A stretch of DNA of 27,048 nt from Pseudomonadota bacterium (GCA_014584455.1 JACTMV010000308.1:1-27048), one strand, 5' to 3'; counted from the first letter of the stretch, positions 11,558-16,539 are shown. Translations and numbers: made by a program. The notes: generated by a model not told the origin, from the letters alone.

Positions 11558-12565
11558 TCAGTTGGAGGTGGCGCCGGCGCTGGCGCTGATCTCGGCCGAG
11601 ACCTCGATCGAGACCGAGATCCGGGCCTCGATCTGGGCGGCGGCGGCGAAGGCGGCGCCGAGCTGCAGGCCGACGCAGACCGAGCGCTCGCCGAGGTCCT
11701 TGGCGAGCTGGCCGGAGGCCTTGATGAGGCGGCCGAGGGTCTGCGCCCACAGCACGATCGCCTTGCCGGTGAGCTCGGCCCGCTTGCCGACCTGGAGGAT
11801 CGTCGGCATGCCGGCGTCGATGGCGCGCATCGCCGCCTGGAACTTGGTGTCGTCGACCACCGTCACCTGCTCCTGGACGACGCGGACCCGCGGCTCGCTG
11901 CATTCGGTGCGCAGGCTGGCGCGGAGCTCGGCCGAGGCCTTGCACTCGGCCGAGGCGTCGACCGAGGCGTAGCCGCGGCAGTCGGCGGAGCAGCGGCCAC
12001 GGCAGGTGCCCTGGCACACGCCGTTGCACTCGCCGCCGGCGCCGGTCGAGCCCTGGCACGCGCCGTCGCAGGTGCCGGAGCAGGTGCCGCCGCAGGTGCC
12101 CTCGCAGGTGACCGCGACGTCGGCCTGGACCCGGGCCTCGCACTGCGCGACCACCTCGGCCGCGAAGTCGACCTGGGTCGTGCACACCGGCGGGTCGTAG
12201 CGGGTGACCATCCGCGTCTCCTGGCTGACCGAGACCTGCAGGTTGGCCTCGAGCGCCTGGGCCGCGGCCCGGCACACCGTGCGGGTGTCACCGTCGGGCG
12301 AGACCCCAAGCTCCCGCGCCATCTCGCGACAGGCGTCGCGCACCGAGCCCTCGAGCTCGAGGGTGCGGCGGTCGAGCTCGGCCGAGGCGACCAGGAACTG
12401 GTGCAGCCGGCGCCCGACGTCGGAGGTCGAGATGTTGCCGCAGGCGTCGGGATCGACGGCGGCGCCACCGCCGCCCCCGCCCGGGCCTCCGCCGCGTGGC
12501 GGCGGTCCACAGGCGATCAGGGTGGCGACGAGCGAGGTGAGGACGAGCACGCGAATCGAGGACAT
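11558..12565 (-). CDS. Cysteine-rich secreted lipoprotein (CxGxC-type repeats)
   Basis: The likely start is MSSIRVLVLTSLVATLIACG (ATG 12563-12565, lipobox). The upstream in-frame extension to 12667 is G/P-rich. The central region is TCEGTCGGTCSGTCDGACQGSTGAGGECNGVCQGTCRGRCSADC, with about 28 Cys overall. It is convergent with the MVP gene (20-bp gap) and divergent from the VIT-vWA gene (67 bp). Confidence 0.6.
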   Translation of the reverse strand: MSSIRVLVLTSLVATLIACGPPPRGGGPGGGGGGAAVDPDACGNISTSDVGRRLHQFLVASAELDRRTLELEGSVRDACREMARELGVSPDGDTRTVCRAAAQALEANLQVSVSQETRMVTRYDPPVCTTQVDFAAEVVAQCEARVQADVAVTCEGTCGGTCSGTCDGACQGSTGAGGECNGVCQGTCRGRCSADCRGYASVDASAECKASAELRASLRTECSEPRVRVVQEQVTVVDDTKFQAAMRAIDAGMPTILQVGKRAELTGKAIVLWAQTLGRLIKASGQLAKDLGERSVCVGLQLGAAFAAAAQIEARISVSIEVSAEISASAGATSN

Positions 12566-12632
12566 GGACCCTCCGGGCTGGACGCCGGCATGATGCCCGA
12601 AACCGCCGCGCCCGGGTGGTGTCCCACCGTCC

Positions 12633-15929: not shown

Positions 15930-15963
15930 GGCGGCGCGCCGCGCCGGCGCGCGTGGCCGCGGA

Positions 15964-16539
15964 TCACAGGCAGGTCACGCTGCTGACCGCGGTGTGGCTG
16001 CAGTGGGTGTCGGGATCGGTCGAGGCCGCGGTCAGGTGGTAGATGCGACAGGCCAGCGTGTTGCCGGCGATGTCGCTGGCGTCGTAGGTCTCGGTGGCGT
16101 CGAGGCCGGGGCAGGCCGCCAGGCAGGCGGCGACCGAGGCGTAGGGCGGCACCGCCTGGTCGCTGCACAGGGCGTCGGTGATGGCGCAGAAGCTCTCGCA
16201 GTTGGTGCCGCAGGTGCCGTCGCCGCCGGGGCCGGCGCGGGTGCAGGCGGTGGGGTCGCCCTCGGCGATCGCCGCCCAGTACGTCCGGCAGGCGATGGTC
16301 TGGCCGCCGCGATCGTCGGGCGCGCCCAGCTCCAGGGTCTCGCACGTCGCCTGGCAGGTCGAGACGTCGGAGAACTGCGCGACCGCGCCCTGGCAGTTGC
16401 GCATGACCAGCACGCAGTAGTCCTCGCAGGCGTTGGCGACCCGGTCGACCTCCGTCCCGCCACAGGCGAGCCCCGCGAGCGCGGCCCCGATCATGACCAT
16501 GGTGCCGCCGACGAGTCCCCGGGTTCGCATCGCCTGCAT
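15964..16539 (-). CDS. Cysteine-rich lipoprotein with an internal tandem duplication (2 x about 75 aa)
   Basis: Start at MQAMRTRGLVGGTMVMIGAALAGLACGG (ATG 16537-16539, lipobox). It is the clean C-terminal third of the 325-aa artefact ORF. The two halves share the pattern CE(D/S)(Y/F)C....C....(S/A)C.A.C..L....TYDASDIAGNT(I/L)ACR(T/I)Y(W/H), with 18 Cys in total. Confidence 0.6.
   Translation of the reverse strand: MQAMRTRGLVGGTMVMIGAALAGLACGGTEVDRVANACEDYCVLVMRNCQGAVAQFSDVSTCQATCETLELGAPDDRGGQTIACRTYWAAIAEGDPTACTRAGPGGDGTCGTNCESFCAITDALCSDQAVPPYASVAACLAACPGLDATETYDASDIAGNTLACRIYHLTAASTDPDTHCSHTAVSSVTCL

Follow-up and report, generated by a model that had tools for sequence, protein, structure and literature searches.

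Two disulfide-rich lipoproteins, probably of independent families, at a myxobacterial locus: a predicted cystine-ladder hairpin and a BfoA_C repeat protein

The DNA analysed here (27,048 nucleotides, the whole of which is referred to as the window) comes from an assembly labelled Pseudomonadota bacterium (GCA_014584455.1 JACTMV010000308.1:1-27048); it has a G+C content of ∼76%, and contig CAADGB010000349 of "uncultured delta proteobacterium PRO4" matches it at 99-100% identity. The subjects of this report are two cysteine-rich lipoproteins, gene A and gene B, whose open reading frames (ORFs) were both found at 11558-12565(-) and 15964-16539(-), where a first-pass annotation of the sequence had placed them (Table 1). 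In the window they flank a convergent gene pair encoding a VIT-vWA protein (+) and an M50B peptidase (-), as that annotation had described, and the strings that it quoted (TCEGTCGGTCSGTCDGACQGS, GVCQGTCRGRCSADC, TLACRIYH and TIACRTYW) all occur in the proteins. Genes A and B are unrelated to one another (mutual local score 60, versus 50 +/- 10 for shuffles), and the internal duplication of gene B was confirmed, repeat 1 aligning to repeat 2 with a local score of 95 where shuffles give 30 +/- 6 and a maximum of 55. The cysteine counts required correction: gene A contains 19 rather than about 28, and gene B 17 rather than 18 (16 in the mature protein).

Table 1. Features of genes A and B and of the adjoining genes, in window coordinates.
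Feature	Coordinates	Strand	Basis
Gene A: 335-aa lipoprotein, 19 Cys, with predicted helical bundle and cystine-ladder hairpin	11558..12565	-	ORF, translation
Gene A signal peptide and lipobox, aa 1-19 (...ATLIAC), with Pro/Gly-rich linker next	12509..12565	-	Sequence; C19 invariant
Gene A predicted hairpin with mirrored Cys, aa 128-222; seven pairs, each with a position sum of 350	11900..12184	-	Cys positions; AlphaFold2 strand boundaries symmetric
Gene A CxGx predicted ladder core, aa 154-196; 5 + 5 Cys at a spacing of 4, Gly between	11978..12106	-	Invariant columns; AlphaFold2 strands
Gene B: 191-aa lipoprotein, two BfoA_C-type repeats	15964..16539	-	ORF; homologues; AlphaFold2
Gene B signal peptide and lipobox Cys, aa 1-26; alternative start at 16530	16462..16539	-	Alignment, DNA sequence
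Gene B repeat 1, aa 37-110, 8 Cys; family His replaced by W, A, R	16210..16431	-	Repeat hidden Markov model, consensus, alignment
Gene B repeat 2, aa 113-190, 8 Cys; R165, H168, H179, H182 retained	15970..16203	-	Alignment, consensus, local score
Peptidase_M50B-like membrane metallopeptidase, HELGH; 83 bp downstream of gene B, same strand	15098..15880	-	PF13398
Secreted VIT - P_proprotein - vWA protein, divergent from gene A	12633..15092	+	Pfam
Photolyase-like gene, 62 bp upstream of gene B, same strand	16602..18143	-	Weak PF00875 match
Major vault protein (MVP) homologue, 845 aa, convergent with gene A, 20 bp apart	9000-11537	+	PF11978 MVP_shoulder E = 2e-25; Vault_3

Both proteins are conserved and are predicted to be disulfide-rich, extracytoplasmic-type lipoproteins of myxobacteria, as had been proposed. 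Each has a basic and hydrophobic leader that ends in an invariant cysteine. The gene A ATG is preceded by a GGAGG motif 4 nt upstream, and its leader ends in a canonical lipobox (...ATLIAC19) whose C19 is invariant in 37 homologues. The corresponding C26 of gene B is invariant in 24 homologues; its leader (...LAGLAC26) ends in a relaxed lipobox, AGLAC not being canonical, and in this respect the earlier description of both leaders as lipoboxes has to be loosened. Translation of gene B may start at an ATG 9 nt (three codons) downstream, giving MRTRGL... as in its homologues, and a predicted signal peptide is kept either way.

Homologues of gene A number more than 343, are ∼335 aa each, and are 57-100% identical to it. 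In an alignment of 37 homologues all 19 cysteines are invariant, as are the glycines between the CxGx cysteines, and the only indels within the cysteine-rich region fall in the tip loop (aa 171-179). In the same alignment the CxGx core has an invariant face, which carries the cysteines and glycines, and varies on its other face and at the tip. Gene A matched no family in Pfam, NCBIfam or PADLOC, and its profile found nothing below E = 0.2 among PDB sequences; it belongs to a family that has no model in the three libraries searched, and for this protein the earlier statement that no family could be named stands. The resemblance to EGF/laminin-like knots suggested for both proteins was not borne out by Pfam or NCBIfam, in which neither gene A nor gene B had such a match at E <= 1, and the proposed profile check for a Myxococcus-type cysteine-rich repeat or DUF4215 was likewise negative for both at that threshold in the same two libraries.

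A scan of one genome per species returned 125 relatives of gene A. The best 80 of these, which the taxonomy covers, are all metagenome-assembled genomes (MAGs) of Myxococcota, class Polyangia, mostly Kofleriaceae or Haliangiales; distant relatives at 24-33% identity occur in Nannocystaceae, Sandaracinus and Polyangiaceae. Many MAGs encode both an orthologue of gene A (53-99% identity) and a paralogue at ∼40%. At 16/27 loci of the paralogue (L051-L081; e.g., L070:3414-5183 (+)) it is preceded on the same strand by a gene for a ∼560-aa M1-type zinc-peptidase lipoprotein, which has a HELAHQW motif and matches PF01433 with E = 1.6e-8.

The central 14 cysteines of gene A are mirror-symmetric about residue 175, such that every pair of positions adds up to the same number (128+222 = 142+208 = 154+196 = 158+192 = 162+188 = 166+184 = 170+180 = 350). 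Mirror analysis was performed on 56 homologues with a recognised signal peptide. Seven mirrored pairs were present in 32 of them, mostly members of the ortholog group, and six in 16, mostly from the ∼40% paralogue group; 7 distant relatives have 10, 14 or 15 pairs, and one truncated ORF (L080) has 2. Five cysteines, namely the lipobox cysteine and four others, are left unpaired in 48/56 homologues. In distant homologues irregular gaps between the cysteines are the same on both arms (10,4,13,9,4,4,8,4,4,4,4,4,4 in L084 and 10,4,6,9,9,4,6,10,4,4,4,4,4,4 in L088), and Pro-containing kinks are also mirrored between the arms. Random placement of an equal number of cysteines never reached the observed pair count, and permutation of the right-arm gaps matched the fit in 0/5000 trials for L084 and L088 and in 2/5000 for L090.

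An AlphaFold2 model of gene A contains helices at 49-86, 94-111 and 239-334 and strands at 114-124/226-236, 128-135/215-222, 150-174 and 179-204, the latter again symmetric about residue 175. From the cysteine pattern and the model we infer that gene A has a helical bundle into which one long antiparallel two-armed hairpin (about aa 114-236) is set, its arms held together by a cystine ladder. The lipid anchor would be followed by a flexible Pro/Gly linker, the helical bundle and then the projecting hairpin, with predicted cross-links C128-C222, C142-C208, C154-C196, C158-C192, C162-C188, C166-C184 and C170-C180, the distal five rungs of which would make up a CxGx beta-ribbon. Invariance of the Cys/Gly face combined with variability of the opposite face points to structural constraint rather than to a conserved binding surface on the ladder. 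Gene A might give the cell envelope a rigid structural strut or spike that depends on oxidation, and evolution would have adjusted the length of its hairpin through the gain or loss of rungs (6 to 15). It is possible, and we suggest it tentatively as something short of probable, that gene A founds an undescribed, Polyangia-restricted class of envelope lipoproteins in which a protein-scale cystine ladder of 6-15 paired rungs serves as a periplasmic or surface strut (a ruler or a spike).

Gene B can be placed in a catalogued family. Local Pfam, NCBIfam and PADLOC scans of gene B gave no family, the Pfam copy used being without the PF28386 model. PF28386 (BfoA_C) is precomputed on 49/49 of the first-round and 62/62 of the profile-round homologues, including the 98%-identical protein P0001, and on the syntenic genes in L001, L007 and L009. 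By way of these homologues, and hence indirectly, gene B is assigned as a new member of BfoA_C, a family catalogued in newer Pfam releases, and the earlier remark that it matched no nameable family does not apply to it. Its profile found nothing below E = 0.2 among PDB sequences. With E <= 0.001 as the limit, an exhaustive profile search recovered 2,969 clusters (50% identity), 755 of which have E <= 1e-30. Among the 40 best-scoring representatives the N-termini mostly have a lipobox-like ...GC end. Arrays of the repeat run from 2 to 32 copies, with four the commonest number (81 of the 149 best-scoring representatives). Ten larger BfoA_C proteins scanned against NCBIfam and Pfam had no extra domains, and the cluster annotations that were looked up read "hypothetical protein" only. 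Arrays of up to 32 copies occur in giant lipoproteins (P0207, 3796 aa; P0208; P0216), and one member, P0241, looks eukaryotic to judge by its cleavable signal, its NxS/T sites, a stalk rich in Ser/Thr and a hydrophobic tail at the C terminus.

The consensus of 857 BfoA_C repeats (xCexYCxlvxxnCtGxxaqYadxaaClaaCaxlpxgxxgDtxGnTvqCRxYHAgxAxxdpaxHCpHAGpxGGgvC) has eight cysteines, an arginine present in 96% of repeats, and histidines present in 71% and 66%. When compared with the pattern C..YC......C............C...C.................CR.YH..........HC.HAG..GG..C, both gene B repeats keep the eight cysteines and the arginine; repeat 2 keeps the family histidines too, and repeat 1 lacks all three. The first and fifth cysteines of the repeat (C2 and C30) are lost together in 17 repeats, versus 0.45 expected, and are therefore likely disulfide partners; the first, second, fourth and fifth cysteines are predicted to form a twin CX3C helical hairpin. 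The AlphaFold2 model of gene B (predicted local distance difference test score [pLDDT] 88.6, predicted template modelling score [pTM] 0.80) is all-alpha, with four helices per repeat. Gene B is a lipoprotein composed of two ∼75-aa BfoA_C repeats, each with four predicted helices, eight cysteines and a predicted twin CX3C hairpin, in which the patch formed by the near-invariant arginine and the His-rich CRxYH...HCxH segment is complete only in repeat 2.

The gene directly 3' of gene B encodes a membrane peptidase of the M50B type (PF13398 score 119.3 bits, gathering cut-off 26) with a HELGH motif. Among 82 distinct gene B loci retained after removal of duplicates, an M50B gene lies directly 3' on the same strand at 12, with 28-120 bp between match ends; these include 8/8 loci at which gene B is at least 56% identical. 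Both flanks of the pair vary across the 12 loci: some have DUF4336-like or photolyase genes upstream, another has PhyH there and a resistance-nodulation-division (RND) pump downstream, and elsewhere the downstream gene is VIT-vWA or an unknown one. A photolyase-like gene precedes gene B in 9 distinct loci (48-69% gene B identity), and a photolyase-gene B-M50B operon is possible. No sites were returned when 11300-16800 was scanned for promoters and terminators, and nothing terminator-like was found between gene B and the M50B gene. In its clade gene B is probably co-transcribed with M50B, and it could be an extracytoplasmic partner of that peptidase, acting as a ligand- or metal-binding sensor or regulator. 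Among distant relatives, one BfoA_C gene (L011:6014-6610 (+)) has a weak cytochrome c-like gene and an extracytoplasmic function (ECF) sigma factor nearby, and another, on a 153-kb JGI contig, has a TonB-dependent receptor and an ECF sigma factor nearby; these single contexts hint at a link to metal or haem.

Taken together, we consider it probable that genes A and B belong to two independent families of disulfide-rich lipoproteins, of the predicted ladder and BfoA_C kinds set out above, which are neighbours through local synteny. Several observations weigh against parts of this account. For the gene A of the window taken alone, the fit survives gap permutation in 176/5000 trials, a weak control because five of its rungs are periodic, and the mirror argument therefore rests on the family. 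The confidence of the gene A model is only moderate (pLDDT 69.5, pTM 0.50) and is low at aa 136-152 and 199-216, and its basal segments are helix-prone. The two basal rungs lie 14 residues apart in helix-prone sequence, and the basal part of the hairpin may be coiled coil rather than beta. The seven disulfides themselves are a predicted pairing only, based on mirror symmetry and on the correlated gain and loss of rungs. With respect to gene B, of the 43 loci at which it is less than 56% identical and is followed by 1 kb or more of sequence, 1 has M50B, and two shorter loci, L100 (51%) and L136 (42%), have it as well; the pairing is confined to the closest clade and could be inherited synteny. 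Distant BfoA_C proteins (35-45%) follow a ∼350-aa tetratricopeptide repeat (TPR) protein, with overlapping stop and start codons (TPR-BfoA_C pairs at L012:4937-6001, L013:4919-6007, L165, L166, L168 and L174). A literature search returned nothing relevant on BfoA or DUF4331, and a role for BfoA was not found.

The last points bear on whether gene B has a ligand or a partner at all. It is plausible, if on balance unlikely, that it is an inert, disulfide-stabilised structural spacer without a ligand, and that its proximity to the M50B and photolyase genes is inherited gene order with no functional coupling. The restriction of M50B adjacency to one clade fits such a spacer, as do the absence of all three family histidines from repeat 1 and the way in which arrays of 2-32 repeats fill most of very large lipoproteins, much like structural repeats. 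Retention of the arginine in 96% and of the histidines in 66-71% of the 857 repeats, however, goes beyond what the fold alone would need, and the gene B-M50B pair persists despite changes of both its flanks. We retain a candidate role for gene B as a sensor or regulator coupled to M50B.

For gene A, metal-thiolate, radical S-adenosylmethionine (radical-SAM) and pore-forming-toxin readings are all disfavoured. The first-pass annotation had called such cysteine spacing typical of metal binding among other things, but metal-thiolate binding is unlikely because the cysteines are strictly paired in mirror image. More generally, we regard it as very unlikely that gene A is a metallothionein-like metal binder or a target of radical-SAM modification (tSAM_targ_Cxxx type) instead of a disulfide ladder. 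Its CxGxC runs do match TIGR04114 weakly (E = 0.62), but the score of 10.7 bits lies below the curated cut-off of 20; a few homologues carry a PF27846 (tSAM_targ_Cxxx_rpt) annotation flagged "weak", and one JGI record labels a homologue "modification target Cys-rich repeat protein". An adjacent radical-SAM maturase is a criterion for the tSAM_targ_Cxxx family, whereas no radical-SAM gene recurs near gene A at 37 ortholog loci, and the sole one seen, in L014, is part of a Memo-AMMECR1-rSAM trio at a distance of 2.5 kb. The lipoprotein leader also places gene A outside the cytoplasm, and exact mirror pairing, in which pairs come and go together, is predicted by disulfides across the arms, not by metal clusters or a linear repeat substrate.

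The first-pass annotation also implied a single cell-surface module in which the two lipoproteins bracket the VIT-vWA protein and the M50B peptidase, and the present analysis corrects that impression. All four genes lie side by side in the window, as they do in ∼8 related contigs (L001/L016, L002, L015, L018-L021, L095, L115), but all such contigs have gene A at 76% identity or above, and VIT-vWA, M50B, gene B and MVP adjoin gene A only in loci at that level. At 78 loci with gene A below 70% identity, no VIT-vWA, M50B, gene B or MVP gene was found within 10 kb. Even among syntenic loci the set comes apart: L017 has gene B-M50B-gene A-MVP without VIT-vWA and is otherwise syntenic, and L007-L010 keep gene B-M50B without gene A or VIT-vWA. 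De novo clustering of neighbours at 37 gene A ortholog loci gave no recurrent neighbour (the most frequent occurs at 8/37). VIT-vWA, found next to these genes only in close relatives, is not a conserved partner of gene A or B, the expected co-occurrence does not hold, and a four-gene module appears highly improbable. Just as improbable is a reading in which gene A, with its helical bundle and a beta-tongue, would be an alpha-pore-forming toxin component of the ClyA/Nhe/Ahl type used for predation. Compared with such components (AhlB, NheA), its helical-bundle scores look generic, its hairpin does not look hydrophobic, and it is lipid-anchored and without tripartite partners.

Other genes of the window have features of their own. 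The VIT-vWA protein has a signal peptide and carries a proprotein-convertase P-domain (PF01483, E = 1.7e-14) between its VIT and vWA domains. It sits one gene away from the MVP homologue, and the VIT domain takes its name from a vault-associated protein. The MVP gene encodes a bacterial homologue of the eukaryotic major vault protein and is 88-100% identical in relatives; a link between gene A and MVP was considered and rejected, as in close relatives the two genes lie anywhere from 20 bp to ∼3.6 kb apart and MVP is missing elsewhere. A 339-aa protein encoded at 24500-25519 (-) has lipin/PITM-type LNS2 and beta-sandwich domains (PF24694, E = 1e-27), which are described mainly from eukaryotes. 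At 1908-3383 (-), a 491-aa ORF has a region resembling cytochrome bd subunit I (PF01654, E = 1e-12) and, at its C terminus, a cytochrome c domain (PF13442).

In gene A, the mirror symmetry of the cysteines and the gain and loss of rungs in pairs across the family provide an unusually clear signature of disulfide connectivity from sequence alone. If the prediction is true, finding a ladder of 7-15 rungs within a lipoprotein would add a new structural element, one that might offer a natural rigid-rod scaffold. As for gene B, its BfoA_C repeat serves very commonly, in uncultured Myxococcota and outside them, as a unit from which large extracytoplasmic lipoproteins are built, and no solved structure resembles it. 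The gene B-M50B link offers one testable handle on both proteins, the M50B peptidase being uncharacterised.

Comparison with known systems places each protein near, and apart from, familiar disulfide architectures. Within BfoA_C, gene B consists of two PF28386 repeats and is a minimal form, whereas the commonest form has four and the largest up to 32. Twin CX3C helical hairpins are known from the mitochondrial intermembrane space, in the small Tim proteins; each gene B repeat likewise has C-x3-C on helix 1 and on helix 2, and the joint loss of the outer cysteine pair in 17 repeats is what would be seen for disulfide partners as in those proteins. The gene B repeat differs in having four more cysteines and two more helices and in being bacterial and lipid-anchored, and the resemblance is one of motif, with no sequence relationship. 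Gene A shares with TIGR04114 and PF27846 cysteine runs of four-residue period, but its cysteines are mirror-symmetric and not a simple tandem repeat. Its predicted ladder resembles those of tachyplesin, protegrin and theta-defensin, which are cystine-ladder beta-hairpins: to our knowledge, cystine ladders are known only from short antimicrobial peptides of this kind. In these, as predicted for gene A, antiparallel arms are joined by parallel cross-strand disulfides, and tachyplesin, like gene A, has C-x3-C on each arm. There is no homology between them, and gene A has a helical bundle; the peptides comprise ∼18 residues with 2-3 rungs, whereas gene A would carry 7 rungs (6-15 in its homologues) in a lipoprotein of 335 aa.

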